NCBI GenBank assembly: GCA_040005235.1 | Contig: JBDTZG010000023.1 | Coordinates: 18,648-82,647 of the forward strand | Reading direction: 5' to 3' | Length of the DNA stretch: 64,000 bases | Source of the DNA: Acidobacteriota bacterium | GTDB taxonomy: Bacteria > Acidobacteriota > Thermoanaerobaculia > Multivoradales > UBA5704 | Translations under genes and position numbers: made by a program | Shown here: piece after piece, positions 1 to 38,652 of the stretch | How the letters are laid out: every line of letters starts with the position of its first letter | Numbering within the stretch: position 1 is the first letter of the stretch | The notes under the pieces: model-generated | What the model was told of the DNA's origin: nothing | Seen by the model: only the letters and a program-made list of their open reading frames with translations | Database searches by the model: none

Positions 1-651
1 GGCCTGGCCGTGATTGCCCTGGCGGCGGGTTTTTTCGACCAGGACGGGCTCGTTGCCGGTCACCGCTCCGCCGTCGCCGAAACCGCCGAGGTTTTTGGTC
101 GGATAAAAGCTCCAGGCGGCGATCCGCCCGAATCCGCCCACCCGCTTGCCCCGCCATTTGGCGCCGTGCGCCTGGGCGGCGTCTTCCATCAGCCAAAGGC
201 CGTGACGCCCGCAGACGCGGCAGATCGCGTCGACGTCGAACGGCCGGCCATAGAGATGGACGCCGATCATGCCGACGGTCCGGTCGGTGATCCGCGCTTT
301 GGCGTCTTCGGCCGAAATGTTGAGCGTCTCGGGATCGACGTCGACGAAGATCGGAGTTCCCCCGACCAGGGCGACCGCTTCGGCGGTGGCGAAGAAACTG
401 AAGGCGGGGACCAGCACCTCGTCGCCCGGCTTCACCCCCAGCACTCGAAGCGGCAGGATCAGCGCATCGGTTCCGTTCGCGAGGCCGGCGCACGCGTCGA
501 CTCCGAGATAATCGGCGAACCCCTGTTCGAATTCCTTCACCTCGCGACCGAGGATGAAGCTGGTGGTATCGAGAATTTCCTTCCACCGCCGGTCCAGCTC
601 GGGCTGGAGGCGAGCGACGGTTCGGGTGAGGTCGAGGAAAGGCACTTTCAT
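1..651 (-). CDS. DegT/DnrJ/EryC1/StrS family PLP-dependent sugar aminotransferase (3' end runs off window)
   Basis: Not in the ORF track. Manual translation of the minus strand from ATG 651 gives MKVPFLDL...NGTDAL...GDEVLVPAFSFFATAEAV...VHLYG...EDAAQAHGA...SFYPTKNLGGFGDGG. ATGA overlap with the upstream gene's stop (648-650). Confidence 0.93.
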   Translation of the reverse strand, partial: MKVPFLDLTRTVARLQPELDRRWKEILDTTSFILGREVKEFEQGFADYLGVDACAGLANGTDALILPLRVLGVKPGDEVLVPAFSFFATAEAVALVGGTPIFVDVDPETLNISAEDAKARITDRTVGMIGVHLYGRPFDVDAICRVCGRHGLWLMEDAAQAHGAKWRGKRVGGFGRIAAWSFYPTKNLGGFGDGGAVTGNEPVLVEKTRRQGNHGQA

Positions 652-2432
652 CGAGGGGTGGTCTCCGAGGCGGTGGGAGTCGCCGAAGGGTTGGATTCTT
701 GGGGGACCGGCGCAGGGCCGCCGATTTCGCCGCCCGGTTCGGGATCGCCCGGCAGGCGGCGGAGCGGAGCGTCGTTCCACGGCGTCGCCCAGAGGCCCAG
801 CCGGTCGTCGCCCATGGTGATGTTGTTGACGATTTCCAAAGAGGCGACCAGGCGGAAGCGCGGGTCGCGACCCACCACCGGGAACCAGGAGGGAAAGACG
901 ATCACGTAATCGGGTCGGCGGCGCTCGATCGCAAGCAGCATCGACGACTCGAAGTTGAGCCCTTTTTTCATCTCCGTCGCCGCCTCCACCCGGATTTCCG
1001 GGTTGGCGATGCCGACCAGATCGATCACGCGGTTGGGGAGGAAGAACTTGACGGCCCCGATGTCGTTGACCGCGAGCACCGCATCGGGCGGCAGGCGGGG
1101 GCCGAGCCAGCGGGCGATGCGGACGTCGCTATCCTGAACATTGGCGACGTTTTGGGCATAGAGCAGCGAGCCGCGCCAGAGGCCGGAGAGCGTCGGCCAG
1201 ACGAGCAGGGCGAGCAGGATGGCGCGCAGCGGCAGACTCGATCCCGTCGCGGAATCTCCCAGGCCGATCCGCGCGCCAAGCGCTGTGGCGGCGCGTTCGA
1301 GCCCAACCAACCCGAGGACGATCACGATCGGCATCAACGGAAAGTAATAGCGGCCGAAATTACCCGCGAGCAGGCCGCGGCCGGTCGGGCTGATCGTCGA
1401 GTAGGCGAGCGGCAGAGCGATCAGCCAGAGCGCGGGCAGCAGGCCGCGATCGCGGCGGGTTCCCAATCGCTCGACCAGGGCGAGCACGCCCGCTCCGGCG
1501 AGCAGCGTCAGCCAGGGCACCGCGCGAAAGACGATCGAGAGGATCGCAGCGGCGTATTGAGCGTCGGGGACCAGTCCGTGAAGGTCGGCGCCCTTCGCCG
1601 TGAACGTCGTGGGCAGGAAATGACCGCCGACGATCTTGTAGAAAAGGAGCGGGCCGACCAGGGCGCAGAGCGCGAGCGGCAAGCCGATCGCCACCGGCCG
1701 CCAAGGGGGCAGGCGCCAGACCAAAGCGCCATTCTCGACGGCACTCGATCCGTCGTCGAGCCGCTCTTCCGGAGCCCGACGGTCGAACCCGACCCACAGC
1801 CGATCGAGCACCGCGAGCACCAGGAGTAGGGCGCCCTCCGGCCGGGCGAGGATCGCGAGGCCGAAGATTCCCAGCGAGAGCGGCGGACGCCCCGGATCGC
1901 AGCGCTCGCGCAGGTGGAGAACCATGCCGCCGACGCTCAAGAGAATGAACAGCGGCACCTCCATCCCGGAGAGCGCCGACCAGACCAACCAAGAGGTCGC
2001 CGCGGCAAAGCCGGTCGCAACAGAGGCGCCGGCCTCCGACAGGTCGAGCTCCCGCCCGAGACTCCAGATGGCACGCAATCCCGCCAGATGGATCGCGACC
2101 CCTAGCGCCTGGGTCCACAGGACGACGTTGCCGGGAAGATAAAGCAGAAGGGACAGGAGCGCCGTCCAAAGCGGCGCCGTCGAACCGGTCACCCGCTCGG
2201 CGGCGTTGTAGGAAAGGCCGTTGCCGTGCGCCAGGTTTTTCGCGAACTGCAGATGGATCCAGCTGTCGTCGAGCGGAAATCCGAAGTCTCCCGAGAGGAC
2301 GGACGCCTCGACGCCGAAATAGAACAGGCAGATCAGAAAGCCGACGACGAGCAGCCACAAGGGCATTTTCGTTGGGCGCGGAGCGGCCTTAAGACCCTGC
2401 GGCGGCGAAGGGGACGTCTCTGGGTTCGGCAT
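648..2432 (-). CDS. Multi-pass membrane protein, GT-C-like (lipid-linked sugar) glycosyltransferase
   Basis: About 10 or more hydrophobic segments; DD motif in the first loop (FPLDDSWIHLQFAKNLAHGNG), ARPEG and GRYYFP motifs, soluble C-terminal domain. Start uncertain (2471/2432/2366). Confidence 0.65.
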   Translation of the reverse strand: MPNPETSPSPPQGLKAAPRPTKMPLWLLVVGFLICLFYFGVEASVLSGDFGFPLDDSWIHLQFAKNLAHGNGLSYNAAERVTGSTAPLWTALLSLLLYLPGNVVLWTQALGVAIHLAGLRAIWSLGRELDLSEAGASVATGFAAATSWLVWSALSGMEVPLFILLSVGGMVLHLRERCDPGRPPLSLGIFGLAILARPEGALLLVLAVLDRLWVGFDRRAPEERLDDGSSAVENGALVWRLPPWRPVAIGLPLALCALVGPLLFYKIVGGHFLPTTFTAKGADLHGLVPDAQYAAAILSIVFRAVPWLTLLAGAGVLALVERLGTRRDRGLLPALWLIALPLAYSTISPTGRGLLAGNFGRYYFPLMPIVIVLGLVGLERAATALGARIGLGDSATGSSLPLRAILLALLVWPTLSGLWRGSLLYAQNVANVQDSDVRIARWLGPRLPPDAVLAVNDIGAVKFFLPNRVIDLVGIANPEIRVEAATEMKKGLNFESSMLLAIERRRPDYVIVFPSWFPVVGRDPRFRLVASLEIVNNITMGDDRLGLWATPWNDAPLRRLPGDPEPGGEIGGPAPVPQESNPSATPTASETTPR

Positions 2433-2499
2433 CAACGATCGGCTTTCATCGAAGGCGGGAAGCATACACAAGGTCCCGGCGGCGACTATGATCCGTCGA

Positions 2500-3936
2500 A
2501 TGTCCGACCGCCCGAACCGCTATTCCCCTTTTGAGCGCAAGCGCCGGACCGTTTCGCGGATCGCGCTCTATGCCAGCGCCTTGGCCGTCGCCGGAATTGC
2601 CTTCGCGTTCGTTTCGTTGCTCGAACGCCCATTGCGACGGCTCGCCTCAGAGCGGCTCGACTCGCGTGACTATCTGAGGCTGCCCGCGGTCGAGGAACTG
2701 CGCAGCTACGTCCGGATCGACACGACCGACGCGACCGGCGACGAAGTCGCGGGGGCGCGTTTCCTGGCTGGGGAGCTGGCTGCGGCGGGCATTCCCTCTC
2801 ACATCGAGCGGATGGGGCCGAAGAAGGCGAACCTGTGGGCGGTGCTCGAAGGCGAAGACCCGCGCGCCATCGTGCTCCACCATCACATGGATGTAGAGGA
2901 CATTCACCCGGAAGAGAAATGGTTCGCGCCGCCGTTTGGCGCGGAGGTCGTCATGCCTTGGCTCTACGGCCGGGGCGCGTTCGACATGAAGAGCGTCGCG
3001 ATCGCTCAACTGCGCGCCCTGATCGCGCTCAAGAAGAGCGGCAAATCGCTCAAGCGCTCGGTGATCTTTCTCGGCACCAGCAGCGAAGAGACCGGCAGCG
3101 ACCTGGGCGTGCGCTGGCTGCTTGCCCAGCGCCCTGATCTGGCGGCCCGCTTCGGGCTGGTGCTCACGGAAGGCGGTTTTCTGGAGGCGCGGACGCGCGA
3201 CGACATCAAGTACTGGGGTATCGAGGTCGGCCAGAAACATTACGTCGATCTGGACGTCTGCGGCCCGGATCGCCAGCCCTTGGACCAGCTCCATGCTTTT
3301 CTCGCCGCGGCGCAGGGCGAAGCGATCGGGCTGCGACTTCTGCCTGAGGTGCGCGACTACATGAAACGCTACGCTCCGTCCCGCGACCACCCTTGGCTCC
3401 GCGGAGCGCTCGCCGATCCCGACGCGATCGTCAGCGACTCATCGATCTTCTCGAAGCTCCCGCGCTACCTCAAAGGATTTTTCCGCGACGAGGCGCTGCC
3501 GTTCGAAGTAAAGGCCGATCCGGGCGGCGGCTACCGAATGCGGGTGATTCTCCATCTGCTCCGGGACACGTCCGTCGACGAAGCATTTCCCCGTCTCGTC
3601 CCCGCCGGCCTGCTCCACGGTTTGGACTACAGAATCTCCGACTCGTCGGGTCCGTCCGAGCCGAGCTCTGCTGACAGCGCGGACTTCCTCACGATTCAAC
3701 AGACCTTGGCGGACAGCTATCCCAAGGCGAGGATCGGCCCCGCGCTGCTGCCGTGGACCGCGACCGACGCGCGCTTCTTCCGCGCCGCCGGAATTCCCGC
3801 CTACGGCTTCTCGCCATTCTTGATCTTGAGCACCGATACCCTCCAAGTGGACAACGCCAACGAGCGGATGGCCCTGCCGGGCTTCGTTGACGGGGTCGAG
3901 TTGTACGAAACGGTCTTACGCCGTCTCGCCCTTTGA
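2500..3936 (+). CDS. M20/M25/M40 family metallo-hydrolase with N-terminal TM anchor (copy 1)
   Basis: HHHMDV, GRGAFDMK, SSEE, TEGG, TDARFFR motifs; C-terminal His ligand replaced (QVDNANER). Start 2488 or 2500. Confidence 0.85.
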   Translation: MSDRPNRYSPFERKRRTVSRIALYASALAVAGIAFAFVSLLERPLRRLASERLDSRDYLRLPAVEELRSYVRIDTTDATGDEVAGARFLAGELAAAGIPSHIERMGPKKANLWAVLEGEDPRAIVLHHHMDVEDIHPEEKWFAPPFGAEVVMPWLYGRGAFDMKSVAIAQLRALIALKKSGKSLKRSVIFLGTSSEETGSDLGVRWLLAQRPDLAARFGLVLTEGGFLEARTRDDIKYWGIEVGQKHYVDLDVCGPDRQPLDQLHAFLAAAQGEAIGLRLLPEVRDYMKRYAPSRDHPWLRGALADPDAIVSDSSIFSKLPRYLKGFFRDEALPFEVKADPGGGYRMRVILHLLRDTSVDEAFPRLVPAGLLHGLDYRISDSSGPSEPSSADSADFLTIQQTLADSYPKARIGPALLPWTATDARFFRAAGIPAYGFSPFLILSTDTLQVDNANERMALPGFVDGVELYETVLRRLAL

Positions 3937-3971
3937 CACTTTTTGACAACGCCTCTGGTCAAAGATTGTCT
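3934..3971. promoter_or_regulatory. Candidate enhancer (UAS) for a PilR-like activator: TGAC-N6-TGAC-N10-GTCA-N6-GTCT
   Basis: Inverted array of four 4-bp half-sites 54-91 bp upstream of the sigma54 GG; a related motif lies upstream of pilin 2. Confidence 0.5.
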
Positions 3972-4023
3972 GGCGCGAAGAAGAAGCCCCTGATTCCTCA
4001 AGGGTTTGCGCGATCTAAATGCT

Positions 4024-4039
4024 TGGCACGATGCCTGCT
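4024..4039 (+). promoter_or_regulatory. Sigma54 -24/-12 promoter of pilin 1
   Basis: TGGCAC-GATGC-CTGCT; GG(4025-26)-N10-GC(4037-38). Confidence 0.8.
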
Positions 4040-4107
4040 TTCTCTCCAGACAAAACCCATGGAATTGGCCGTGGGAGCAGTCTGGTAGAAAGAATAGGGA
4101 GGAGCCA

Positions 4108-4629
4108 ATGCTCAATCGTCTTCGCAAACGTCAGAAGGGCTTCACGCTCATCGAGCTTCTCATCGTCGTCGCGATCATCGGCATCATCGCGGCTCTGCTG
4201 ATTCCGAACTTCCTGGATGCTCTCCAGAAGGCCAAGCAGAAGCGGACCGTCGCCGACATCCGCAACACCGGCACCGCGATGTTCTCGTGGCTGACCGACC
4301 AGGTCGGCGCCGCCGCCGCCGGTCAGGGCACGGCGGATCTCGGTTCGTACGTCTCGATCACCCAGGCCGATTTGAGCACGCTGCTGGTCCCGGTCTACAT
4401 GCAGGACGTCCCGAAGGTCGACGGCTGGAAGGGCGACTATGACTTCTTCCTGAAGACCGGTTCGCGGGTGCTCGAGCAGCAGGTCATGATGATCCGCAGC
4501 AAGGGCCGCGGCGGCGTGGCGGACAGCACCTCCACCTACACCATCACCTCGTTCGACCCGACCGACTACGCGCAGGACATCGTCTGGGCCGACGGCTTCT
4601 TCGTCCGGTGGCCGCAGAAGACCAACTAA
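4108..4629 (+). CDS. Prepilin 1 (class III signal peptide, GspG-like head), probable major pilin
   Basis: MLNRLRKRQKG|FTLIELLIVVAIIGIIAALLIP; DGW..Y and IRSKG..G motifs; GGAGG RBS; strongly optimal codon usage; followed by a terminator. Confidence 0.92.
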   Translation: MLNRLRKRQKGFTLIELLIVVAIIGIIAALLIPNFLDALQKAKQKRTVADIRNTGTAMFSWLTDQVGAAAAGQGTADLGSYVSITQADLSTLLVPVYMQDVPKVDGWKGDYDFFLKTGSRVLEQQVMMIRSKGRGGVADSTSTYTITSFDPTDYAQDIVWADGFFVRWPQKTN

Positions 4630-4662
4630 ATCTTCCCCCTGTCTGTTGGAGGCTCGGTCAGA

Positions 4663-4699
4663 GGGGGGTGTCGTCTTAGGCGATACCCTCCGCTTTTTT
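4663..4699 (+). terminator. Rho-independent terminator after pilin 1
   Basis: GGGGGGTGTCGTC-TTA-GGCGATACCCTCC stem (with G-U pairs) followed by GCTTTTTT. Confidence 0.75.
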
Positions 4700-4770
4700 C
4701 GAGCCTTTGTAGCCCAGCCGCCGCGACCTCCAAGTCGCGGCGGTTGTCTTTTGGAGCGAGAATTGAATTC

Positions 4771-6129
4771 ATGAGTCGCCGCCTGGCACTGCTGCCGCTC
4801 CTCCTGCTGGCCTGCTCCCCGATCGGCGGCGCCCCCCACGTCTCTGAGGGAGCCGCGTGGCTGCGCGACTACCTGAAGATCGACACCACGAATCCCCCGG
4901 GCCACGAGAGCCGAGCCGTGGACTTTCTCGCCGGAATCCTCGCTCGGGAAGGAATCCCCACCCAACGGTTTGCGGATCAGCCCGGCCGCGACAATTTATG
5001 GGCCCGGTTGCCCGCAAATTCGGGGGCGCCGGGCGCGGGGGGCGCCATCCTCCTGCTCCATCACCTCGACGTCGTTCCCGCCGGTCCCGGCTGGCAGACG
5101 CCCGCGTTTTCCGGCGAGATCCGCGAAGGCCGGCTTTGGGGGCGGGGCGCGATCGACGACAAGAGCCTTGGTATCGCATTCCTGGCGGCGATGATCGACT
5201 TGAAGCGCAGCGGCGTCAAGCGAACGCGCGACGTGATCTGGCTTGGCGTAGCCGACGAAGAGAGCGGCGGCGGAAGCGGCACGGCCTGGCTGCTCACCAA
5301 ACATCTCGAGCTGTTTGCCGGCGTCACCGCCGTGATCGGCGAGGGGGGAGCGAACCGGGTGGCGCAGGGCCGCTTGCTCTGGTGGGGCATTGAGGTCGCG
5401 CAGAAGCGCCCGCTCTGGATTGAGGTCACGGCGGAAGGGCGGGGCGGCCACGGCTCCGGACTGAACCCCTGGAGTGCGAACCATGACTTGGTCCGCGGCC
5501 TCGATCGCCTGCTGGAAGTTTCTTCCCGTTGGCGGGTCTCCGCTCCGGTCCGCACCTATTTGCACGCTCTCGCCCCGCTCCACAACCCTTACTGGCGGAA
5601 ACGTTTCCTCGACATCGACCGGGTCGTGGCGCCCGACGGGCCGCGGGAAATGCTGATGCCCGGCTTGGCGAATCTTTTTCTCGACACCGCCCAGATCACC
5701 GTGCTTTCCGGCGGCGATCGAATCAATGTCATTCCCGCGAAGGCGAGCGCTCAGATCGACATCCGCCTGCTCCCGGATACCGACGCCGCGGCATATCTGC
5801 GGGAGATCAAGACCGCGCTCGGCCCCGATCTGGAGGTGAAGGTCCTGCTCACCTCACCTCCCGCCGCGGCCTCGCCGACCACCACCCCGGCCTTCGCCGC
5901 CTTTCAAAAGACGCTCGCCGGACCGGTCGTTCCGGCCTTCATCGCCGGCTTTACCGACTCCCGCTACTTTCGCGAACGGGGCATTCCAGCCTATGGGTTC
6001 TCCCCTTTCGCCCTGGAGGGACCGGACTTGGCTGGTATTCATGCGGCCGACGAGCGCATCCCCCTCGTCGAGCTCGACCGCGGGATCGAGCGAACCAAAG
6101 ACTTCCTCCGCGCCCTGGCCTCGCCCTGA
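4771..6129 (+). CDS. M20/M25/M40 family metallo-hydrolase, lipoprotein (copy 2)
   Basis: Lipobox LLLAC; HHLDVV, GRGAIDDK, ADEE, GEGG, GHGS, TDSRYFR, IHAADER (complete ligand set). Confidence 0.9.
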   Translation: MSRRLALLPLLLLACSPIGGAPHVSEGAAWLRDYLKIDTTNPPGHESRAVDFLAGILAREGIPTQRFADQPGRDNLWARLPANSGAPGAGGAILLLHHLDVVPAGPGWQTPAFSGEIREGRLWGRGAIDDKSLGIAFLAAMIDLKRSGVKRTRDVIWLGVADEESGGGSGTAWLLTKHLELFAGVTAVIGEGGANRVAQGRLLWWGIEVAQKRPLWIEVTAEGRGGHGSGLNPWSANHDLVRGLDRLLEVSSRWRVSAPVRTYLHALAPLHNPYWRKRFLDIDRVVAPDGPREMLMPGLANLFLDTAQITVLSGGDRINVIPAKASAQIDIRLLPDTDAAAYLREIKTALGPDLEVKVLLTSPPAAASPTTTPAFAAFQKTLAGPVVPAFIAGFTDSRYFRERGIPAYGFSPFALEGPDLAGIHAADERIPLVELDRGIERTKDFLRALASP

Positions 6130-6180
6130 CAGTTTCTGCCGAGGCGGTGACGTATTTTGACCTCAGCTACCTTTTTTGCC
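6127..6180. promoter_or_regulatory. Candidate enhancer (UAS) upstream of pilin 2
   Basis: TGAC-N6-TGCC (6127-40), TGAC-N6-TGAC (6148-61), CTAC-N6-TGCC (6167-80). Confidence 0.45.
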
Positions 6181-6224
6181 TCTCAAAGCACTGACTCTAA
6201 AGGTTTTTACAGAGGCACGGCCGC

Positions 6225-6240
6225 TGGCACGCGGCTTGCG
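6225..6240 (+). promoter_or_regulatory. Sigma54 -24/-12 promoter of pilin 2
   Basis: TGGCAC-GCGGC-TTGCG, near-consensus GG-N10-GC. Confidence 0.85.
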
Positions 6241-6278
6241 ATCCCATAGAGCATCAGGAGTTAGAGGAGGGTTTGGGA

Positions 6279-6803
6279 ATGTTCTCTCAGCGACGAGACA
6301 GGGCCAAAGGTTTCACTTTGATCGAACTTTTGATCGTTATTGCGATCATTGGCATCATCGCCGCGATGTTGATTCCCAACCTGCTCGATGCGATGCAAAA
6401 GGCGAAGCAGAAGCGGACCGTCGCCGAGATCAAGATCATCGGCACCGGCATGATGTCCTGGTTGACCGACCAGACCGGCGCCGCGGCCGCGGGTTCTACG
6501 ACAACCACCAATAGCACCAAGATCGGCGACTACCTGCCCATCTCGGCGGCCGTTCTGCAAACTGTCCTCGAACCGAACTACGTCGGTCAGCTGCCGCCGC
6601 TCGACGGCTGGAAACATCCCTACGACTATTACCTCAACGTAACGGACCCGACCAACAAGCACGTGATGGCGATCCGCAGCTCGGGATTCGACGGTAACCC
6701 CTCCGGAGATACCTACGCCTTCGGTTCCTTCGACCCGACCGATTACGCTCAGGACATCGTCTGGACCGACGGTTTCTTCATTCGCTGGCCGCAAAAACCG
6801 TAG
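6279..6803 (+). CDS. Prepilin 2 (paralog of pilin 1, GspG-like head)
   Basis: AKG|FTLIELLIVIAIIGIIAAMLIP; shares QKAKQKRTVA, SWLTDQ, DGWK and SFDPTDYAQDIVW.DGFF.RWPQK with pilin 1; GAGGAGG RBS. Confidence 0.92.
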   Translation: MFSQRRDRAKGFTLIELLIVIAIIGIIAAMLIPNLLDAMQKAKQKRTVAEIKIIGTGMMSWLTDQTGAAAAGSTTTTNSTKIGDYLPISAAVLQTVLEPNYVGQLPPLDGWKHPYDYYLNVTDPTNKHVMAIRSSGFDGNPSGDTYAFGSFDPTDYAQDIVWTDGFFIRWPQKP

Positions 6804-6854
6804 GATCGGCGGCGAGACGGGAGCGGAGCTTGTTGACGTAAGATCCGCTCCGCC

Positions 6855-7631
6855 GTGCCCCTCTTTCTCCTTTACTGGATCGTTTACTTCGGACTGGTCG
6901 GCCTACTGGTCGGCAGTTATCTGAACGTCGTCATCTACCGCCTGCCGCGTCGGCTTTCGACCGTACTGCCGCGCTCGCGCTGTCCTGCCTGCGGTACGGC
7001 AATCCGCCCCTACGACAACATCCCGGTTCTCGCTTTCCTCTGGCTACGCGGTCGCTGCCGAACCTGCGGCGTTCGGATCGGCTGGCGCTATCCTGCGATC
7101 GAGGCTCTCACCGGAGCGCTGTTCATGCTCTGCGCGCTGCGCTTCGGCCTAAGTGTCGATGCGCTGGTCGCCGCCCTCTTCTGCGCCGCTATGGTGGTCC
7201 TCGCGGCGATCGACGTCGAGCATTTCCTCTTGCCGGACCGGATCACCCTGCCCGGGATCGCGATCGGGCTGGCCGTGCAGCCCTGGCTGCGCGGGCCGGG
7301 CCTGCTCTCGGCGGCGATCGGCGCGGCGGCCGGAGCGGGTATCCTGATCCTCGTCTGGGGAGTCTGGTATCTGATCCGGCGCGAGCACGGCATGGGCTTC
7401 GGCGACGTCAAAATGCTCGCGATGATCGGCGCCTTCCTCGGGCTCCGCTCGATGGGAGTGGCGCTGTTCTTGGCGGTCCTTGCGGGCGCCCTTTGCGGCC
7501 TGGCGCTCCTCGCCGCCGGCAAATTCGGGTTTCGCTCGAAGCTGCCGTTTGGGCTTTTCCTGGCACTCGGAGCGCTGGTCGGGTTGTTCTTCGGCGACGC
7601 GATCTCGACCGCCTACCTCGGCGTGTTGTAA
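6855..7631 (+). CDS. pilD: Prepilin peptidase (A24)
   Basis: GSYLNVVIYRLP, CPAC...GRCRTC Zn motif, ID..H.LLPD, GMGFGDVK, LPFG.FL. Confidence 0.95.
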   Translation: MPLFLLYWIVYFGLVGLLVGSYLNVVIYRLPRRLSTVLPRSRCPACGTAIRPYDNIPVLAFLWLRGRCRTCGVRIGWRYPAIEALTGALFMLCALRFGLSVDALVAALFCAAMVVLAAIDVEHFLLPDRITLPGIAIGLAVQPWLRGPGLLSAAIGAAAGAGILILVWGVWYLIRREHGMGFGDVKMLAMIGAFLGLRSMGVALFLAVLAGALCGLALLAAGKFGFRSKLPFGLFLALGALVGLFFGDAISTAYLGVL

Positions 7632-7640
7632 AAGAGGGAG

Positions 7641-9395
7641 ATGAGGCGACCCCAGAAGCTCGGCGCGCGACGGGAGATTTTGATCCTGCTGCCGGCGACT
7701 CTTCTCCTGCTGGTGCTGATCTCGACGTTTACCCTCTTCTCCCTGCGTAGCGCGCTCGCCCGCTGGCAGGGGGAGCGGCAGGACGAAGCCGCCGCAATCG
7801 CCGGGCGCCTGGTGCGCCAGCTCGGCGAGGCCGCCCCCCTGCCTACCGAGGCCGATCTCCCCCGGCTGGCCGAGCCCGTCCGGGCCCTGGGGGGCGCCCT
7901 CGCGATGACCGACGCGCGGGGGGCGACGATCGCCCAGATCGGACCCTACTCCGGGCTCGGCGCGACCGGCCGAGCCGGAGACTCAAGCCTCGCCTGGGGA
8001 CCGACCCTCGTCGGGGGCGATTCCGTGGCGGCCCGCGTGCCGCTGCGTGGGGCCGGACGAAGCCTCGTCGTCGAGCTCCCTGCCGCGGCGCTCGCGAGCC
8101 AGCTTCGCGCCGTTCGCTGGCTCACCCTGATCGTTCTTCCGGTCAACGCCGCCCTCCTGCTGCTCGCCCTTTTTTCGCTACAACAGATCCTCGGCCCCTG
8201 GGAACGCCTGCTCGCTCGGGCCGAGCAGGCGGGCGGCGCGCGTTCGAGCGACGAAGACGAGGTCGACTTCCTCCTCGCGACGTTTGAGCGGGCGCTCGCC
8301 GACGCTCCGGGATCGGCCGATCCGGCGGCCGGAGAGGACGACCTGGCGGCGCTCGAACGAACTCTTTCGCCCAGCCTGCAAAGCGGCCTGCTGCTCCTCG
8401 GCCGGCACGGCGAGGTCTTGGCCTTGAATGACCTCGGCGCCGCCCTGCTCGGCCTGCCGGCATTGCGTCCGGGCTCGGCGGCCGGACCTGACGTGCGCGA
8501 CCTGCTGGCCGGTCGGCCCGAGGTACTCGCCCTGATCGTCCCGGCGATCGCCTCGGAGAGCGCCGTGCAGCGCGAAGAATTGAGCATCGAAGGACCCGGA
8601 GGCGCGGGAGCGGGGAGTCGGCGCACGATCCTGGGGCTCTCCGTCCACCCGCTGCGACGGGTCGATGGCGGCGTCCGCGGTCACCTGATCCTGTTCACCG
8701 ATCTGACCGAGGTCCGCCTGCGCGGCGAGCAGGCGCGGGTCGCCGAAGGGCTTTCCCAACTCGGCGAGATGGCGGCGGGGGTTGCCCATGAGCTGCGCAA
8801 CGGACTCGCCACGCTGCGCGGGTACCTGACCTTGATCGATCGCCGGCCGGACGGGGACGCGGTGGGCGACTATCTCGCGGAGATGCGACGGGAAGCCGAT
8901 CACCTGGAGCGGGTGGCAAACGATTTTCTCGAATTCGCCCGACCCGGCTCGGCGCGCCGGGAGGCCGTGGCGCTGGATGAGCTCTTGGCGCGCGCCGCCC
9001 ACGATCCTGCCCTCGGAGGGTTCGGCGTGACGGTGACGGGCGAGCCTGGGCTGATCGCCTCGGGAGACGAGCCTCTCCTCTCCCGTGCCCTGCGAAATCT
9101 GCTCTTGAACGCCGCCGAAGCCGAGCGTCGGGCAGGAGGCGAAGGACCGCTGGAGATCGAGGCCCACAAAGGACCGGAAGGGTGTCTAAACGTCGAGATC
9201 CGCGATCGAGGACCGGGGGTGTCTCCCGAGATTCGCGAACGGCTCTTTCAACCGTTCGTGACCGGCCGGCCGGGCGGCGTGGGGCTGGGCCTCTCCCTCG
9301 CCTACCGGATCGTCAGCCTGCACGGTGGAACGCTCGATCTCGCCGACCGCGAAGGGGGCGGTACGGTTGCCACCCTCGTCCTACCCGCGGCCTGA
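7641..9395 (+). CDS. Sensor histidine kinase (PAS-HisKA-HATPase), PilS-like
   Basis: 2 TM segments; AHELRNGL H-box, NLLLNA N-box, DRGPG, LFQPF, GVGLGL. Confidence 0.9.
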   Translation: MRRPQKLGARREILILLPATLLLLVLISTFTLFSLRSALARWQGERQDEAAAIAGRLVRQLGEAAPLPTEADLPRLAEPVRALGGALAMTDARGATIAQIGPYSGLGATGRAGDSSLAWGPTLVGGDSVAARVPLRGAGRSLVVELPAAALASQLRAVRWLTLIVLPVNAALLLLALFSLQQILGPWERLLARAEQAGGARSSDEDEVDFLLATFERALADAPGSADPAAGEDDLAALERTLSPSLQSGLLLLGRHGEVLALNDLGAALLGLPALRPGSAAGPDVRDLLAGRPEVLALIVPAIASESAVQREELSIEGPGGAGAGSRRTILGLSVHPLRRVDGGVRGHLILFTDLTEVRLRGEQARVAEGLSQLGEMAAGVAHELRNGLATLRGYLTLIDRRPDGDAVGDYLAEMRREADHLERVANDFLEFARPGSARREAVALDELLARAAHDPALGGFGVTVTGEPGLIASGDEPLLSRALRNLLLNAAEAERRAGGEGPLEIEAHKGPEGCLNVEIRDRGPGVSPEIRERLFQPFVTGRPGGVGLGLSLAYRIVSLHGGTLDLADREGGGTVATLVLPAA

Positions 9396-13200: not shown

Positions 13201-14247
13201 CTGAATGTAACGCGCCTGCCCGAAATCGGGAACCGTCTCGCTGCCCCTCAGGTTCGGCGCCAATCGACGCAGGATCTCGTCGCGGTTCGACGCACCCCAA
13301 TCGAACGGCAAGAAATCGCCGCGGTCAAATTTCGTGTTCGTGGGGTACAAAGGATTGATCGTGGTTGCCAGTTTGTACCTGTCGACCATCGAGTCGCTAT
13401 TGGCGTCCATGCCGGAACAGCTCTCCAAAACGCCGGTGCCGGGGCCCGACGCCGGTCCGAGCGGAATGTCCGCCGCGTAAGAGGTGCGCGCGTAGGTCTG
13501 GCGGACCAGGTTGAACGTGACGTCTTTGGTTTCCGTGACTGTAAACGTTGCCGGACATGACCCTACCACCGACCGGACGACGCGCACCGTGATCGTCGGG
13601 TCGCCCAGGTTCCCGGCGATCTTCTGAGTCGTGACTTTGAACCCCTTAAGAGAGGAGGGCGCGGTGGTTGGACGCAGCCAGATCGTCCAGGTGTTGGTGC
13701 CGAGATCCCCAAGACGCGGGGTGAATTGGGTTCGTGCATCAAAGCCGCCGTTGGCGATTGCGACCATGCTCGTGCATCCCCCCACGGTGGTATTCGCACC
13801 TGGGGTGTCCTCGCCGCCGAACACGTAAGGCACCCCCCTGACCGGATAGCCCAATGCCGATGGGGATGACGACCATCCTGGGTTGGCCGCCGGGGTATAG
13901 ATCCAATGTTTCCGGCGCACCAACGTCTGATCCTGGTTGAAGGTCGCGAAACCGTACTGGACGTCGGGGTTGTTGCCCAGCGCCGTGTAGAGCGCGCTCT
14001 TGGCCTGGTAGAACTTCGATTCGGGGTCGTCGCCCGAACCGATCGGCGAACTCGAGTCGGCCGGCTTCTCGTTCATCGAGCCCGAGGTATCCAAGAGGAT
14101 GAACATGTAGGGGGGCGCCGGCGACTGCCGCAGAAGCAAACGATCGTCGGCGCGACCGGAACCCAGGCCGAGGCACAATCCTTGAACCAACAGCGCCGCC
14201 GCGACCGTTCGCGACCGTCCGGAGAATCCCTGCCTTCGGTGTTTCAT
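10207..14247 (-). CDS. pilY1: PilC/PilY1 family pilus tip adhesin (vWA + beta-propeller)
   Basis: ILLDTSGSM MIDAS, LILTDG, LGDIFHSNP, GSNDGEMHLFDA, GVDG, LGDTWSTP, DTDLDGYLD Ca loop; AGGAGG RBS before ATG 14247. Confidence 0.92.
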   Translation of the reverse strand: MKHRRQGFSGRSRTVAAALLVQGLCLGLGSGRADDRLLLRQSPAPPYMFILLDTSGSMNEKPADSSSPIGSGDDPESKFYQAKSALYTALGNNPDVQYGFATFNQDQTLVRRKHWIYTPAANPGWSSSPSALGYPVRGVPYVFGGEDTPGANTTVGGCTSMVAIANGGFDARTQFTPRLGDLGTNTWTIWLRPTTAPSSLKGFKVTTQKIAGNLGDPTITVRVVRSVVGSCPATFTVTETKDVTFNLVRQTYARTSYAADIPLGPASGPGTGVLESCSGMDANSDSMVDRYKLATTINPLYPTNTKFDRGDFLPFDWGASNRDEILRRLAPNLRGSETVPDFGQARYIQYLTQTATAPFGSVANPPLVDPLQVPLLAQGNTPLGNSMSQFRDWYAGCHDDDAMNATCSTPGWAGVAKADDQFFDCRGKYLLILTDGLDTCGGDGELGPACQGAKVLYEKYGITTIVLAFGQVSIGGSVLSCLADKGSGGTIRPFNPTDQVGLAKALQTIFERVTQTSRSFSSAAVPTVQANFEDTVYVPNFTSLNPTSFVEPHLEDGLGNRLPTPAPGAGATWDGHLSAFLKPVPLDAAGKPSTQTLCSATPGVGVRSQCFLWDAGVKILEQAPSFVQLQGGSPTWMIGAGDNERRLFYAKAASTAAVPAGRRLLLPQTTLADQQDLWEGMGLLGVNTSDSFAVDTANSLVEGAIKYTLGEKQAVVDASRTATFVLGDIFHSNPVLLSAPNRIAYYDNDVPNPPGISTPCTSNKGYRCFRQKHQYRRRVAAVGSNDGEMHLFDAGIYRTSLTPKSFDNGTGKEVMAFVPRPMLKHLYGQASTYSQNWGVDGTIQVDDVFMDPSHTGTPTATDREWRTVLIGSLREGGNGYFTLDVTQPDVLNTSSVPQPLGGGYVPSCWNGGSNCGPVPFGSVLWSFSDASDEDNNEDNDSDETGDLGDTWSTPNTGRIRILVDGTATPKVYEDHYVAIFGGGMDPSRQNKRGNWLYMVDIETGLVIYKRQLDGSAPSDPAAIDTDLDGYLDRVYIGTTKGWVYKVDMSKDVQLVVDGSGRKRITSAAWAPVKVFDTATDRGTATEKIRPVFFPPSVVFDAKSGQFALGFGTGNREDLWSDPNKMGEALIEGRFYFVLDTGWHAQGATELPSVNTTLPKTGADFVQISLDTAVASAGTNFLSLPPIGSQAGWTMLLSANERLISKALTLSGISVFTGFVPSLQSIGGGRCERNGTSNIYTVLATNANPVLGTDPENRRRVIKSFVTNPFVETNISKNKRPPTSDPPQTGAVCQPSAEAKNVLRSLFPGDCKFTEYTQDIKTFQVNTELVCIAAIPVCVREQNWRDQ

Positions 14248-14312
14248 AACTCCTCCTGGCGCCACGAACCCAGCCGCCTGCGCCTCAATCGACAAATTTC
14301 TCAATCGTCAAG

Positions 14313-14840
14313 TCAGGGTGCAGGCACTACCGGAAGCTGCGGTTTGAAAGGTTGAATGTCGAGCATCGCGTTCAGCCGCTTCTCGGCGAGGGGCACGTCC
14401 GTGCCGTCGCTCGTGGTGCCCTTGCGGCTCGCGGTGATATCGACGAAGTAGGTGATCGCCCGATAGGGCTCTTCTCCCGGTTGCTGATTGACCTCGCACA
14501 GCGCGCAGTAGGGGGAATTGAGCCGGGTATACGAGTTGCGCTGGATCTTGATTCCGAGGCTCGCGGGCGAGCCGTCATCCGGCGTGAACGAGCTCCCCGC
14601 CTGGAATTCGCCCAGGATCAGCGCGCGGGCCGTCGCCTCCATCATCCCTGCGTCGGCGGCGTAGAAGACACGGTTGATCATTTTTTCGTTCGCGCCGATC
14701 TGCAGCTCGTTTTGGGTGACGAGAGACAAGGAGAGGCCGATCACCGTGAGCAGGAGAAGCAGCAGCAGAGCCACGATGTAGGCGCTCCCCTGCTCGGCCC
14801 AGAGGACGTTTCCACGACGGATGCCGCGATGGATCTTCAT
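14313..14840 (-). CDS. pilX: PilX-like minor pilin
   Basis: EQGSAYIVALLLLLLLTVIGL (no E5), ...FYAADAG; ATGA-coupled to pilW. Confidence 0.85.
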   Translation of the reverse strand: MKIHRGIRRGNVLWAEQGSAYIVALLLLLLLTVIGLSLSLVTQNELQIGANEKMINRVFYAADAGMMEATARALILGEFQAGSSFTPDDGSPASLGIKIQRNSYTRLNSPYCALCEVNQQPGEEPYRAITYFVDITASRKGTTSDGTDVPLAEKRLNAMLDIQPFKPQLPVVPAP

Positions 14841-16174
14841 GACAGATTCCTCAAGTCGACCACCGTTTGCAGCAGTCGGCGCCGATACATCCGGTCGGTG
14901 CGACCGTTGGTGCGGTCGGGCACGTCGAAGGCGTAGGCGTGGTCTTCCGAGCGATCCAGGATCGGCGCAATGTAGTCGGAATCTCGCCGTTCCGTGCGCG
15001 CGAGCGTGCTGATCCGAAGGTAGGCGAGCTTGCCTGCGATTGGGTTTTCGGGTGCGGCGTTCGCGGCCTCGGCGATCCGGACGTTTCCCAGCCACTCATC
15101 CGTCGGCTGCTGGGCGATGTCGGGGGCCTCGACCACCAGGCCGTCATTGTTGGTGTCGATGCCATAGGTCGCCTGGAGATCGACGATGCCGGACGCGATG
15201 TCGACGGTCAGGTTCGCGGGATTGTTTCCATAGGGGATTTCGGTCCCGGGATAAAATCGCGCGCGGGTAAGGACCGGTACCAGATCGCTCGCGGGATCGG
15301 TCGGGTCGGCCCGGTCTTCCCGCACGTAATAACGGTACTCTTCGAGGATCCCAACGTAGATCGCGCTGTTCAGCTGGGGCGGCATGTGGAAAGCGCCCGG
15401 AGGCTGCAAGGCGCGATACGCAACCGACAACGGCTCGTCGTTGGTCAGATATTTGATCGTTACGCCTTCCAAGGCCCCGCATTCGGTGGCGGTCTTCGTC
15501 GAGTTGACCGGATCCATCACGATCACGGTGTAAAAAGTATGATCGAGCGGCGAGGTCAAGATCAGCGCTTCGTAGCTCGGTCCCCGCGAAGGGTCGGCGG
15601 CCGCGTCGATCAAATCCTTGAACGGCGCGAGCGGCTGGTCGATCCCGGCTGGCGATAGGGCGCAGAGCTGAAACTCGCCATTGGTGGTGGTCGCGGGATC
15701 GGCATCCCCCGCGCTGCCCGGAGGGTTCGGACCATCGTCCCAGCGCCGGTACCCCAGCTTGTCGAGCGTGTTGAGCTGAAAGATCTGGGTTGAAAAGACG
15801 CCGCGCAGCGTGATCAGGTCCGTGCCGTCGAGCAGCTTGGGTGTAGCGGCGTCGCCCGGAATCAGGCGCGCAGCCGAACCCGTGACGTTGCTGCGCACGG
15901 AAATGGCGATTCCCGTCGGCAAAGGCGTACCCGGTTGGACGGAGGGCAACCCGCCGCGGCCGGCCATCCGGGCGAGTCGCACCATGTCGTACTGACCGAT
16001 GCGCAACGACTGCTGCATTTCCGAGATCCGGGTCTGGACCCGGGCGAGACGGTCGCTCAGATTGAACAGCTGGAGCATGATCAGGGTCAGGATCAACGTC
16101 ACGCCGAGCACGATCAATAGCTCTATAACCGTGAAGCCCGACGGCGTGCTGCGCAAGGAGCGGCTACTTTTCAT
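14837..16174 (-). CDS. pilW: PilW-like minor pilin
   Basis: GFTVIELLIVL, RMAG motif, DLQATYGIDTNNDG, C-terminal TVVDLRN. Confidence 0.85.
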   Translation of the reverse strand: MKSSRSLRSTPSGFTVIELLIVLGVTLILTLIMLQLFNLSDRLARVQTRISEMQQSLRIGQYDMVRLARMAGRGGLPSVQPGTPLPTGIAISVRSNVTGSAARLIPGDAATPKLLDGTDLITLRGVFSTQIFQLNTLDKLGYRRWDDGPNPPGSAGDADPATTTNGEFQLCALSPAGIDQPLAPFKDLIDAAADPSRGPSYEALILTSPLDHTFYTVIVMDPVNSTKTATECGALEGVTIKYLTNDEPLSVAYRALQPPGAFHMPPQLNSAIYVGILEEYRYYVREDRADPTDPASDLVPVLTRARFYPGTEIPYGNNPANLTVDIASGIVDLQATYGIDTNNDGLVVEAPDIAQQPTDEWLGNVRIAEAANAAPENPIAGKLAYLRISTLARTERRDSDYIAPILDRSEDHAYAFDVPDRTNGRTDRMYRRRLLQTVVDLRNLS

Positions 16175-16187
16175 CGGCCCGGATCCT

Positions 16188-16733
16188 TTAAAAAACCTTG
16201 ATCGAAGAAAGCGTGACCTTCTTGGTCAAGCCGAGGAGCGCCAAAGCGGTACTCGCCCCGGTTCGGCCCGGTGAAACCTCAATATCGATCTGGCGCAGCT
16301 GGGCGGGCGGAATGACCCCGCCCGGTTGCAGCGTGGTGCAGCGGCCGTTGGCAAAATCGGCAAGGTCGCATTGGCGGATCGATACTTTCCGGTTCCAGAC
16401 CGGATCCTGCGAGCCGAGCGTCGTCGAGTCGACCCATGACCTCGACGCCCCCGAGTAATAGGTCGTGGTCACGAGCTCGGTGGCGCCGTTCGGCACCGCG
16501 ACATCCACGTTGTCGATCGGCAGGTCGTTCAAACGCTCCAACTCCGATTTGGCCGCGTTGGTCAACTGGGTATATTGGTTGCCTGAGGAATTGCTCATCG
16601 CGGACCGGGTGAAGATCGGCAGCAGGCCGAGCAGGATGAACAGCAGGATCGCGGAGGCGATCAGCACCTCGATAACGGAAAAGCCACGCTCCTTCTGCGG
16701 TCGCTTCCCTCGGAAGCTCCAGGTCTCTGGCAC
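16188..16733 (-). CDS. pilV: PilV-like minor pilin
   Basis: RGFSVIEVLIASAIL; GTG start with GGAGG RBS; first gene of the minor pilin operon. Confidence 0.8.
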   Translation of the reverse strand: MPETWSFRGKRPQKERGFSVIEVLIASAILLFILLGLLPIFTRSAMSNSSGNQYTQLTNAAKSELERLNDLPIDNVDVAVPNGATELVTTTYYSGASRSWVDSTTLGSQDPVWNRKVSIRQCDLADFANGRCTTLQPGGVIPPAQLRQIDIEVSPGRTGASTALALLGLTKKVTLSSIKVF

Positions 16734-16886: not shown

Positions 16887-18218
16887 TCAGTTGCGGTACT
16901 TCGGCACCCCTTGGAGATCCAGCTCCTGAATCTTTCGCTGGAGGGTGCGATAGCTCATCCCGAGCGCCTCGGCCGCCCGCAGCTTGTCCCCTTCCGCGGC
17001 GATCAAAGCGCTCTCGATGCGCTCGCGCTCCGAGCGCGGCGGGCGGACCACGGCTCGCAGGTCGGCCGCCCGTAGGGTGGAACCCGAGGCGAGGATCGCC
17101 GCCCGTTCGAGAACGTTCCCGAGCTCGCGGACGTTGCCCGGCCAGGATTCCGACGAGAGGAGATCCACCGCATCCGCCGCCAGCGTAAGCGGTGCGCTAC
17201 GGTGCCGCTCCGCGAGTCGATTCAGAAGGTGTCGGGCCAGAAGCGGAATATCGCTCGTCCGTTCGCGCAGAGCGGGCAGCTCGAGCGGAAAGACAGCCAG
17301 GCGGAAGAAAAGATCGGAGCGGAACGAGCCGGCTGCCGCCATCGCCTCCAGATCGCGGTTGGTCGCGGCGACCATTCGGACGTCGGCGTGCAACGTGGCG
17401 CCGCCTCCTACCCGCTCGAACGACCGCTCCTCCAGCACGCGCAGTACTTTGCCCTGCACCTCCGGGCGAAGCTCGCCGATCTCGTCGAGAAACAGGGTGC
17501 CGGAGGCGGCGAGCTCGAAACGGCCGACCTGGCGCCGGTCAGCGCCGGTGAACGCACCGCGCTCGTGACCGAACAGCTCGTTTTCGATCAAGGTCTCGGG
17601 GATCGCCGCGCAGTTCACTGCGACGAAGGGTCCAGAGCGCCGCGGCGAGAGCGCGTGAAGCGCCCGGGCGAACAGCTCTTTACCGGTGCCGCTTTCTCCC
17701 GTGAGCAATACCGTGCTCTCGGTCGGAGCCACGCGTTCGAGCAGGCGCAGGGCGGCGCGGAGGCGCGGATGACGGCCGACGATCGGCGGCGCTCCGGGCG
17801 GCGCGAAAACGGGCGGCGCGGCCGCCTCTTCTCCCTCGGTGCCCAAGGCGCGTTCGAGCAGGCGAGCCAGATCGTCGATCTCGACCGGCTTTTCGAGAAA
17901 ATCGTAGGCGCCCTGCTTCATCGCCTCGACGGCGGTCGCCACGGAGCCGAAACCGGTAAGCACGATCACCGGAGCCGTGGGCGCCGCCTGCCGGGCGGCG
18001 GCGAGCACGTCGAGCCCCGAGCCGTCCGGCAGCTTGAGATCGGTAAGGATCGCGGCGAACGCCCCTGCCGTGAGCTTCGCCTTGGCCTCCGCAACGTCCG
18101 CGGCGCTCGCCACCTCGTACCCTTCTTCCGAAAGCGCGGTGACCAGCAGGCGGCGAAGCGAGTCCTTATCCTCAACCACCAGGAGCCGGGCTCGCCGCCG
18201 TGCCGGGCGCTGGCTCAC
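16887..18218 (-). CDS. Sigma54-dependent response regulator (REC-AAA-Fis HTH), PilR-like
   Basis: LVVED, TDLKLPD, GESGTGKE, ELFGHERGAFTGA, FLDEIGE, WPGNVREL; GTG 18218 overlaps the selA stop. Confidence 0.93.
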   Translation of the reverse strand: MSQRPARRRARLLVVEDKDSLRRLLVTALSEEGYEVASAADVAEAKAKLTAGAFAAILTDLKLPDGSGLDVLAAARQAAPTAPVIVLTGFGSVATAVEAMKQGAYDFLEKPVEIDDLARLLERALGTEGEEAAAPPVFAPPGAPPIVGRHPRLRAALRLLERVAPTESTVLLTGESGTGKELFARALHALSPRRSGPFVAVNCAAIPETLIENELFGHERGAFTGADRRQVGRFELAASGTLFLDEIGELRPEVQGKVLRVLEERSFERVGGGATLHADVRMVAATNRDLEAMAAAGSFRSDLFFRLAVFPLELPALRERTSDIPLLARHLLNRLAERHRSAPLTLAADAVDLLSSESWPGNVRELGNVLERAAILASGSTLRAADLRAVVRPPRSERERIESALIAAEGDKLRAAEALGMSYRTLQRKIQELDLQGVPKYRN

Positions 18219-19642: not shown

Positions 19643-19666
19643 CCCGCCGGGCATTCTAGGAGAAGC

Positions 19667-38552: not shown

Positions 38553-38652
38553 TGCGGGGAGACTCCCTGACGACAAGGTCGAAGCCCGGGACCGGATCGA
38601 TCCGGACGGGCGCCAAGCCCGGTAGTTTAGCAGGGCGTCGGGAGCGCCCGCG

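Follow-up and report, generated by a model that had tools for sequence, protein, structure and literature searches.

A conserved type IV pilin island of Thermoanaerobaculia in which M20 metallohydrolase genes accompany the pilins

The pilin island and its genes

The 64-kb stretch of DNA considered here (67% G+C; contig JBDTZG010000023.1 of the Acidobacteriota assembly GCA_040005235.1), which is called the window, carries between positions 648 and 9395 an island of type IV pilin genes that includes two genes for hydrolases of the M20 family, M20-1 and M20-2, each followed by a pilin gene. This pilin island is not strain-specific, but is conserved across Thermoanaerobaculia (Acidobacteriota). 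The full order is a gene for a predicted GT-C glycosyltransferase on the minus strand, followed on the plus strand by M20-1, pilin A, M20-2, pilin B, the prepilin peptidase PilD, and a PilS-like sensor kinase. A preliminary description of this DNA had given the series from the first M20 gene to the kinase, and each element that it listed is found in its place.

The GT-C gene (648..2471, minus strand) encodes a polytopic membrane protein of 607 residues and diverges from M20-1 (2488..3936, plus strand, as are the genes and elements that follow). M20-1 has an N-terminal membrane anchor and a periplasmic M20 domain (Pfam Peptidase_M20, E 1e-23) whose metal site is atypical. M20-2 (4744..6129, starting at 4744 or, likelier, at the ATG at 4771) is an exported M20 hydrolase that matches both Peptidase_M20 and M20_dimer. 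Pilin A (4108..4629, 173 residues) lies between the two M20 genes and matches Pfam N_methyl with an E-value of 9e-11; pilin B (6279..6803, 174 residues from the ATG at 6279) matches N_methyl and, weakly, T2SSG. PilD (6855..7631) is recognized by Pfam A24_N_bact (E 4e-34) and Peptidase_A24, and the kinase (7641..9395) has two transmembrane segments together with the Pfam domains PAS, HisKA, and HATPase. Beyond the kinase, the minus strand encodes an FxLYD-domain protein, PilY1 (1365 residues), PilW, and a further N-methyl pilin. Because PilY1, PilW, and this additional pilin adjoin the island, the whole is a type IVa pilus cluster.

Linkage of the M20 genes to pilins in relatives

The distribution of the island was surveyed by running a profile of M20-1, built from 23 orthologues, against a collection of species-representative genomes. 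Of the 129 M20-1 relatives detected, the best 80 (42-97% identity) were used, and the 49 weaker ones lie outside the counts; the named relatives all come from Thermoanaerobaculia/Acidobacteriota genomes assembled from metagenomes. For each locus, up to 10 kb on either side of M20-1 was annotated by tblastn with the window proteins together with a search for the pilin motif. (It should be noted that in six loci, L024, L036, L041, L044, L053, and L069, mostly from long-read assemblies, matches to M20, pilin, PilD, or GT-C are split across frames in adjacent pieces. These look like frameshift errors or pseudogenes, and those whose open reading frame (ORF) is not intact were excluded from the protein alignments.)

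A lack of linkage between M20 genes and pilins in relatives had been named in the preliminary description as an outcome that would refute its proposal of a role for M20 enzymes in pilin maturation, and the survey is strongly in favour of such linkage. A pilin gene starts less than 450 nucleotides (nt) after an M20 gene in all 78 of the 80 loci that have at least 400 nt of sequence downstream, down to 42% identity; the other two loci, in which M20-1 stands alone, have just 214 and 95 nt of sequence 3' of M20-1. M20-2 is present in 59 of the 62 loci with at least 4.5 kb downstream, and the minus-strand GT-C gene lies upstream of M20-1 in 70 of the 71 loci with at least 1500 nt upstream. Other neighbours serve as internal controls. 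PilD is found within 8-10 kb in 47 of 56 loci, such that the M20-pilin linkage is tighter than the linkage of pilin to PilD (78/78 versus 47/56); the ORF upstream of the GT-C gene is kept in place in 31 of 56 loci; and the PilY1 block is on the minus strand in 7 loci and on the plus strand in 8. In the 9 loci that have no nearby PilD, the M20/pilin/GT-C core is still together.

The order of genes within the core varies. With M1 and M2 standing for M20-1 and M20-2, p for pilin, and D for PilD, the commonest architecture is M1-p-M2-p-D (27 loci), followed by M1-p-M2-D (11 loci), M1-p-M2-p (9), M1-p-p-M2-p-D (8), M1-p (6), and M1-p-M2 (4); M1-M2-p and M1-p-D occur in 3 loci each, M1-M2-p-D and M1 alone in 2 each, and five further architectures in one locus each. 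Thus, the island rearranges in relatives, yet the GT-C/M20/pilin core holds together.

A comparison of M20 and pilin phylogenies, which had been suggested as a further check, was made as a correlation of distance matrices (mirror tree) for the GT-C protein, M20-1, M20-2, pilin A, PilD, and the kinase in the 31 loci that have all six. The correlations range from r 0.55 to 0.93 (partial correlations 0.56-0.66), with the highest values for the GT-C protein against M20-1 (0.93) and against M20-2 (0.91) and values of 0.81-0.85 with the pilin. Every pair scores high, and the values do not tell a shared function from common ancestry.

GT-C proteins at the edges of the core

The minus-strand membrane protein of the window has no match in Pfam, 24 of its orthologues give only sub-threshold matches to PMT_2 and DUF2142, and NCBIfam gives weak matches to a putative glycosyltransferase family and to AftB. 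An AlphaFold2 model built from 44 orthologues has a predicted local distance difference test (pLDDT) score of 83.3. Searched with Foldseek against the PDB, this model finds the oligosaccharyltransferases STT3/AglB/PglB, as well as AftB and ArnT, with a probability of 1.00, E-values from 4e-8 to 6e-6, and template-modelling (TM) scores of about 0.5, and because of these fold matches the protein is assigned as a GT-C glycosyltransferase. Its first loop contains an Asp-Asp pair (DD; D68, D69) that is invariant in the 44-sequence alignment and that we take to be the catalytic motif. The ORF upstream of the GT-C gene (10-909, plus strand) converges with the GT-C ORF, with some 260 nt shared between their 3' ends. 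Homologues of both exist in relatives, the GT-C tail (residues 587-607) is of low complexity and poorly modelled, and one of the two overlapping ends may be over-called.

In many relatives one or two genes for proteins of about 800 residues, absent in the window lineage, lie between pilin B and PilD; they occupy, for example, 14289-16673 in locus L013, 14246-16639 in L072, 14352-19103 in L025, and 14284-19076 in L052. These proteins match Pfam YfhO, which is also of GT-C type; of the 6 that were scanned, 3 exceed the cut-off. In those loci without PilD that were inspected, the core is likewise followed by one or two YfhO-family membrane proteins. Locus L072 has in addition a gene for an S-adenosylmethionine-dependent methyltransferase (13645-14235) between pilin B and PilD.

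Promoters, repeats, and terminators

In both M20 genes the stop codon is itself part of a regulatory repeat. The TGA of M20-1 (3934-3936) opens TGACACTTTTTGAC, and the activator-like repeats of the pilin A promoter, found by pattern match and by direct inspection, extend over 3934..3970, with TGACACTTTTTGACA at 3934-3948 and GGTCAAAGATTGTC at 3957-3970. The TGA of M20-2 (6127-6129) opens TGACAGTTTCTGCC, which together with TGACGTATTTTGAC at 6148-6161 makes up the corresponding repeats of pilin B (6127..6161). Each stop codon is thus the first half-site of a TGAC-N6-TG(A/C)C array, as had been observed before, and sigma54-type -24/-12 elements, which had been placed about 90-97 bp further on, are present 90 nt past the M20-1 stop and 98 nt past the M20-2 stop. 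The first, TGGCACGATGCCTGC (4024-4038), belongs to the pilin A promoter at 4024..4039 (TGGCAC-N5-CTGCT), and the second, TGGCACGCGGCTTGC (6225-6239), to the pilin B promoter at 6225..6240 (TGGCAC-N5-TTGCG).

These elements, with GG and GC spaced 10 nt apart, are predicted sigma54 promoters. On both strands of the 64 kb there are only two matches to TGGCAC-N5-YTGC, both of them before the pilins, where 0.15 would be expected; 2 of 100 shuffled sequences reach two matches. When the window and the surveyed loci are taken together, 119 of the 131 pilin genes have a match to a relaxed -24/-12 pattern in the 260 nt before them, and this pattern has only 156 matches in all loci on both strands. A stricter pattern is found at 65 of the 131 pilins, and those that it misses carry variants such as TGGCATCGACCCTGCT.

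The number of TGAC-N6-TGMC matches within the window is not above chance (4 versus 2.4 expected); three of the four fall in the two stretches that follow the M20 genes, and the motif is conserved in relatives. There, the M20 stops are followed by TG(A/T)CA-N5-6-TGYC and, about 10 nt later, by TGAC/TGTC-(A/T-rich 5)-TGTC. When a pilin is the next gene, 94 of 121 M20 genes have TGAC[AG] at the stop codon or across it (55/73 for M20-1 and 39/48 for M20-2). When no pilin is next, it is absent from 18 of 21 M20 genes, two of the three that have it being on contigs that end there; of the M20-2 genes without a pilin next, 1 of 14 has it. In loci where M20-2 directly follows M20-1, the repeats are found after M20-2. 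The overlap of the repeat with the M20 stop codon reflects tight packing.

Between pilin A and M20-2 (4663..4755) are two terminator-like hairpins, whose stems of 13 pairs each span 4663-4691 and 4715-4746 and are followed by T-rich tails. In 57 of 64 loci, the window included, this gap contains a hairpin with a T-run, versus 45 of 320 shuffled gaps. This terminator and the flanking GT-C gene, neither of which figured in the preliminary description, are the reason that the natural unit may be better regarded as promoter-pilin-terminator-accessory gene.

The kinase and its activator

The regulatory layout resembles the PilS-PilR/sigma54 control of pilA in Pseudomonas, Geobacter, and Myxococcus, in that a -24/-12 element precedes the major pilin, short repeats lie about 90 nt upstream, and the cluster encodes a sensor kinase. 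It differs from these systems in three respects. The island kinase has a periplasmic loop and is nearer to AtoS and ZraS, kinases that are paired with sigma54 activators and whose NCBIfam models are its nearest, than to classical PilS. No PilR-type activator is encoded among the scanned proteins of the 64-kb window. Finally, the island repeat reads TG(A/T)CA-N5-6-TG(T/A)C, whereas GTCT elements and TGT-N11-AGA are given as hallmarks of PilR sites in the available part of PMC6058289. We infer that a PilR-type activator binds the TGAC-type repeats here. Since a sigma54 activator domain is absent from the window proteins scanned, the activator for both pilin promoters is encoded elsewhere. The kinase follows PilD in relatives; no response regulator adjoins it in the window.

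The M20 proteins

Both proteins are members of the M20 family, scoring 84.7 bits (M20-1) and 92.9 bits (M20-2) against a cut-off of 24.6 for Pfam PF01546. In M20-2 the active site is complete: all 59 aligned orthologues (63 less 4 in which the anchoring motif could not be located) retain the HxD His and Asp, the bridging Asp, the Glu-Glu pair, the Glu ligand, the lid His, and the C-terminal His. In M20-1, 23 orthologues share invariant H131/H133/D135, D166, E200, E201, and E228, but the protein departs from the family at two active-site features. It has no lid His, and where M20-2 has its last His ligand, M20-1 has an Asp (Asp455) that is invariant in the window protein and all 22 aligned orthologues, within the loop PFLI-x-x-TDTLQVD-x-ANER; a match to M20_dimer is also lacking. 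M20-1 would be a non-catalytic form or else belong to a separate M20 subfamily whose metal binding is changed. At least 100 columns are invariant across the 23 M20-1 sequences, and both M20 enzymes are under constraint.

The AlphaFold2 model of M20-1 (pLDDT 82.7) has one long N-terminal helix (residues 14-58) followed by a two-domain M20 fold, in which the invariant loop 446-458 is modelled at low confidence. The nearest solved folds in Foldseek are DapE, 2pok, Sso-CP2, the carnosinases, and carboxypeptidase G2 (CPG2), with TM scores of 0.5-0.6. The membrane anchor that had been noted for M20-1 is conserved in orthologues. Its region contains the invariant residues R20, R24, Y28, S30, and P48, and such conservation would exceed the needs of a passive anchor. 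M20-2 had been described as a lipoprotein, which is borne out in the window, where a lipobox (LLLAC) is present, but not in most relatives; only about 8 of 59 orthologues, those of the window's own clade and of loci L072 and L073, have a lipobox, and most others have plain signal peptides.

Neither protein reaches any curated NCBIfam cut-off, those of DapE, ArgE, PepV, aminoacylase, the PM20D1-like PRK08262, PRK07906, and PRK09133 included. The uncharacterised models PRK07906 and PRK09133 come closest, with best scores of 248 bits for M20-2 (PRK07906; cut-off 382) and 129 bits for M20-1 (cut-off 349), and the nearest solved structure by sequence is Enterococcus DapE (E about 1e-20). As in the rest of the family (the DapE/ArgE deacylases, aminoacylase-1, CPG2, Sso-CP2, PRK07906, and PRK09133), the fold has two domains, and M20-2 has the full ligand set; the island proteins are unlike these enzymes in that they are exported to or anchored in the envelope and in that M20-1 has an Asp in place of the last His ligand.

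Modelling of an M20-pilin complex had also been proposed. For the periplasmic part of M20-1 with the globular part of pilin A, the prediction has a median ipSAE score of 0.48 (runs of 0.12, 0.48, and 0.50), the best of three controls scores 0.00, the contacts of the runs agree to at least 76%, and the partners have pLDDT values of at least 73; the tool itself reported no interface. In calibration, the mark is reached by 116 of 157 solved complexes and by 2 of 215 mismatches, and the scores up to 0.60 include 18 of the 157 solved complexes and both of the passing mismatches. The difference from the controls weakly favours an interaction, but a pass at or below 0.60, the band in which this score lies, is more often wrong than right unless the complex was likely beforehand.

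The pilins and the age of the duplication

Both pilins have the marks of type IV pilins and pseudopilins: a short basic leader, Gly(-1), Phe(+1), Glu(+5), and a hydrophobic N-terminal helix. They read ...KG|FTLIELLIV at the processing site and score above the cut-offs of Pfam N_methyl and TIGR02532. Pilin A has a 10-residue leader, the sequence G|FTLIELL, a GspG-like globular part, and the C-terminal end RWPQKTN; pilin B ends in RWPQKP, and both therefore finish in RWPQK plus one or two residues, as had been noted. The NCBIfam matches of pilin A to GspG and to the N-terminal part of Myxococcus PilA are all under the equivalog cut-offs, and the pilins do not reach the type II secretion model GspG (TIGR01710), with 52.8 and 52.5 bits against a cut-off of 88.85.

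Across the loci, the pilin C-termini share a DIVWADGFFVRWP(QK) block that is followed by a tail of 0-13 residues, often Thr-rich (TN, TTTN, PGTTTTTTP). Among the loci compared, no pattern relates the type of tail to the presence of M20-2 or pilin B. Pilin A orthologues follow M20-1 in relatives in one to three tandem copies. Two or three near-identical copies, each with its own upstream region, stand in tandem in L008 (11106-13252), L020 (2511-4714), L004, L015, L016, L017, L021, L023, L028, L038, and L053. Because the copies are near-identical, they are recent local duplicates of the major pilin gene.

The two pairs of paralogues are older. Pilins A and B of the window are 56% identical and the two M20 proteins only 34%, while identity to the window copy is 42-97% among M20-1 orthologues and 48-97% among M20-2 orthologues; from these values, the split between M20-1 and M20-2 is judged to be older than the sampled radiation. 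In a quick tree of the pilins, the label for position A or B requires 5 changes versus about 39 in shuffles, so that the two form largely separate groups with a few exchanges within genomes (L050, L051, L065, and L075). This would fit an ancient duplication of a unit made up of M20, enhancer, promoter, and pilin. The earlier view that the whole unit was duplicated and retained stands to the extent that both the M20 and the pilin paralogue pairs predate the sampled radiation.

Comparison with pilin cassettes of Pseudomonas

The nearest parallel is found in the P. aeruginosa cassettes, which join pilA to tfpO, tfpW/tfpX, tfpY, or tfpZ. According to the available parts of two sources (PMC11841053; bioRxiv 10.1101/2020.04.19.049825), these cassettes share with the island a PilS/PilR-sigma54-type control of the pilin, a terminator, and an accessory gene for an envelope protein. 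In the accessible portion of PMC11841053, the common form of the cassette is a pilin, a Rho-independent terminator, and an accessory gene; the island has this layout, with pilin A, the hairpins at 4663-4746, and M20-2 directly downstream. The same portion describes TfpO and TfpW as pilin glycosyltransferases, and the presence of GT-C-type enzymes beside the pilin is a further likeness. The accessory genes themselves are unlike: those of the island encode M20 metallohydrolases, a class of enzyme that is absent from the accessory proteins named in the part of PMC11841053 that was available, where the term 'peptidase' occurs 0 times. In addition, the island has two M20 genes, one upstream and one downstream of the pilin, and the cassette is doubled, with a second pilin paralogue.

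A search of the full-text literature, in which 'M20' is also used in other senses and whose coverage does not extend to subscription journals, found no paper that links M20 enzymes to pilins among those listed, as judged by titles and the beginnings of abstracts, and the papers found on type IV pili of Thermoanaerobaculia, judged by title, contain nothing on the island. Within this coverage, the M20-pilin association is robust and previously unremarked, and the island proteins are in no described accessory family.

Other genes of the window

Further along, the window encodes a selenocysteine synthase, SelA, that is extended at its N terminus by about 160 residues (18215-20071); a 1421-residue, single-module protein resembling a nonribosomal peptide synthetase, with formyltransferase, adenylation, carrier, and thioesterase domains (24105-28370), adjoined by a transporter of the major facilitator superfamily (28357-29637, minus strand); a 902-residue protein with a PIG-L deacetylase domain (35868-38576); and an S10 serine carboxypeptidase (42139-43671).

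A possible role of the M20 proteins in pilin maturation

Type IV pilins mature through cleavage of the leader and N-methylation by PilD and, in some species, through glycosylation or the addition of phospho-forms. To our knowledge, a metallohydrolase step is not among the known steps. The synteny, the export signals, the cassette layout, and one weak complex prediction suggest that the M20 pair represents an undescribed kind of pilin accessory enzyme, and we give a probability of roughly 0.45 to the reading that these hydrolases are periplasmic enzymes dedicated to the pilin or its glycan. The island could then work as follows. With the GT-C glycosyltransferase gene diverging at the edge, a PilR-type enhancer and a sigma54 promoter would drive the major pilin A, and a second set would drive pilin B. 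Both M20 hydrolases would face the periplasm, M20-1 being anchored in the inner membrane, in which processed pilins await their assembly, and M20-2 being made from a gene just past the pilin A terminator, the position held by accessory genes in the Pseudomonas cassettes. M20 enzymes cut amides in which the carbon next to the nitrogen also carries a free carboxylate. Since this chemistry fits two kinds of bond, the likeliest reactions would be the trimming of residues from the pilin's variable C-terminal tail or the release of an amino acid or acyl group from a glycan attached to the pilin by the neighbouring GT-C enzymes. Trimming of the C-terminal tail in particular is doubtful. The more detailed proposal, that these are the first carboxy-terminal pilin-processing enzymes, with M20-1 binding the pilin after the PilD cut, perhaps as a receptor or a partner subunit given its changed metal site, and M20-2 either trimming it to ...RWP(QK) or stripping an amino-acid cap from its glycan, is likewise improbable.

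Several observations weigh against a dedicated role. The pairing is not strictly one-to-one, in that M20-2 is missing from 3 of 62 loci and is kept without pilin B in 11. All of the loci were picked through M20-1 and all belong to one class, and the distance correlations with r of 0.81-0.93, high for every pair, fit common descent as well as joint function. Nor do pilin and M20 genes form a single simple operon, since pilin A has a sigma54 promoter to itself and is followed by strong terminators. The TGAC repeats are part of the pilin promoters and go with the pilin rather than the M20 gene, because M20 genes that have no pilin next mostly lack the motif and because the repeats shift to the end of M20-2 where the two M20 genes are adjacent; regulatory entanglement arising from this could hold the genes together in the absence of any shared function. 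M20-1, given the missing lid His and C-terminal His ligand, may not be a hydrolase at all, and the M20 enzymes of solved structure act mostly on small substrates (DapE, aminoacylase, dipeptidase, CPG2). As for the tail, many pilin B copies end exactly at RWPQK and so have nothing to trim, and pilins of distant relatives read RYPAGAK.., without the QK.

One alternative is that the M20 proteins are ordinary periplasmic peptidases that serve to turn over or scavenge peptides, and that shared descent and the enhancers lying across the 3' ends of their genes keep them in place, such that a rearrangement parting M20 from pilin would silence the pilin. That a half-site overlaps the stop or last codons in 94 of 121 genes with a pilin next, that the pilins are separate sigma54 transcription units, that all loci come from one class, and that the nearest relatives in NCBIfam and the PDB are generic M20 enzymes would all be expected in this case. 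We nonetheless consider it rather unlikely, since neighbours that are not entangled do decay (31/56 and 47/56 retained) and the minor-pilin block has been inverted, while M20 is always found beside a pilin even though the order varies (M1-M2-p in 5 loci, one to three pilin A copies, loss of pilin B). Moreover, the enhancer can move, as seen in the loci where it sits after M20-2, and M20-1, with its conserved anchor, is an invariant and specialised form of the enzyme rather than a generic peptidase.

The M20 proteins could also work with the GT-C enzymes on some other envelope target or on a lipid-linked donor, for instance in editing an amino-acid-bearing sugar precursor or a cell-surface glycan, in which case the island would be a general surface-modification cluster. 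The divergent pairing of GT-C and M20-1 in 70 of 71 loci, the YfhO-type GT-C genes at the opposite end of the core in relatives, and the distance correlations, which are highest for GT-C with M20-1 (0.93) and M20-2 (0.91) and lower with pilin (0.81-0.85), speak for such a target, but the higher values may just reflect a less regular evolution of the pilins, and the closest tie is that of M20 to pilin (78/78). In addition, no gene for a sugar-nucleotide or polyprenyl-phosphate sugar synthase was noticed in the core, and GT-C enzymes beside pilins are known as modifiers of the pilin, as with TfpW in the available part of PMC11841053; this alternative is judged unlikely. It is very improbable that the island serves a type II secretion-like machine, with the GspG-like pilins as its pseudopilins and the M20 hydrolases as its cargo. 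Pullulanase is encoded next to the pul genes and lipoprotein cargo of type II secretion exists, both pilins match the GspG model (E about 4e-14, below the cut-off), pilin B has its weak match to T2SSG, and M20-2 is a lipoprotein in the window lineage. However, the PilY1, PilW, and PilV-type minor pilins of the cluster are typical of type IVa pili, the anchor helix of M20-1 looks uncleaved rather than like a cleavable signal, and most M20-2 orthologues are not lipoproteins.

Implications

The linkage of M20 genes to pilins across about 80 species of a class that is widespread in soil and sediment points to a specific candidate, open to direct test, for a new step of pilin modification or quality control, and it extends the principle of the pilin-accessory cassette, known mainly from Pseudomonas, to Acidobacteriota with different enzymes. 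If M20-1 and M20-2 do act on the pilin in the manner proposed, the M20 step would set which pilins are assembled or glycosylated and would be a new step in type IV pilus maturation. If pilin tails or glycans are edited in this way, there could be consequences for adhesion and for the evasion of phages in these bacteria, which have been little studied.

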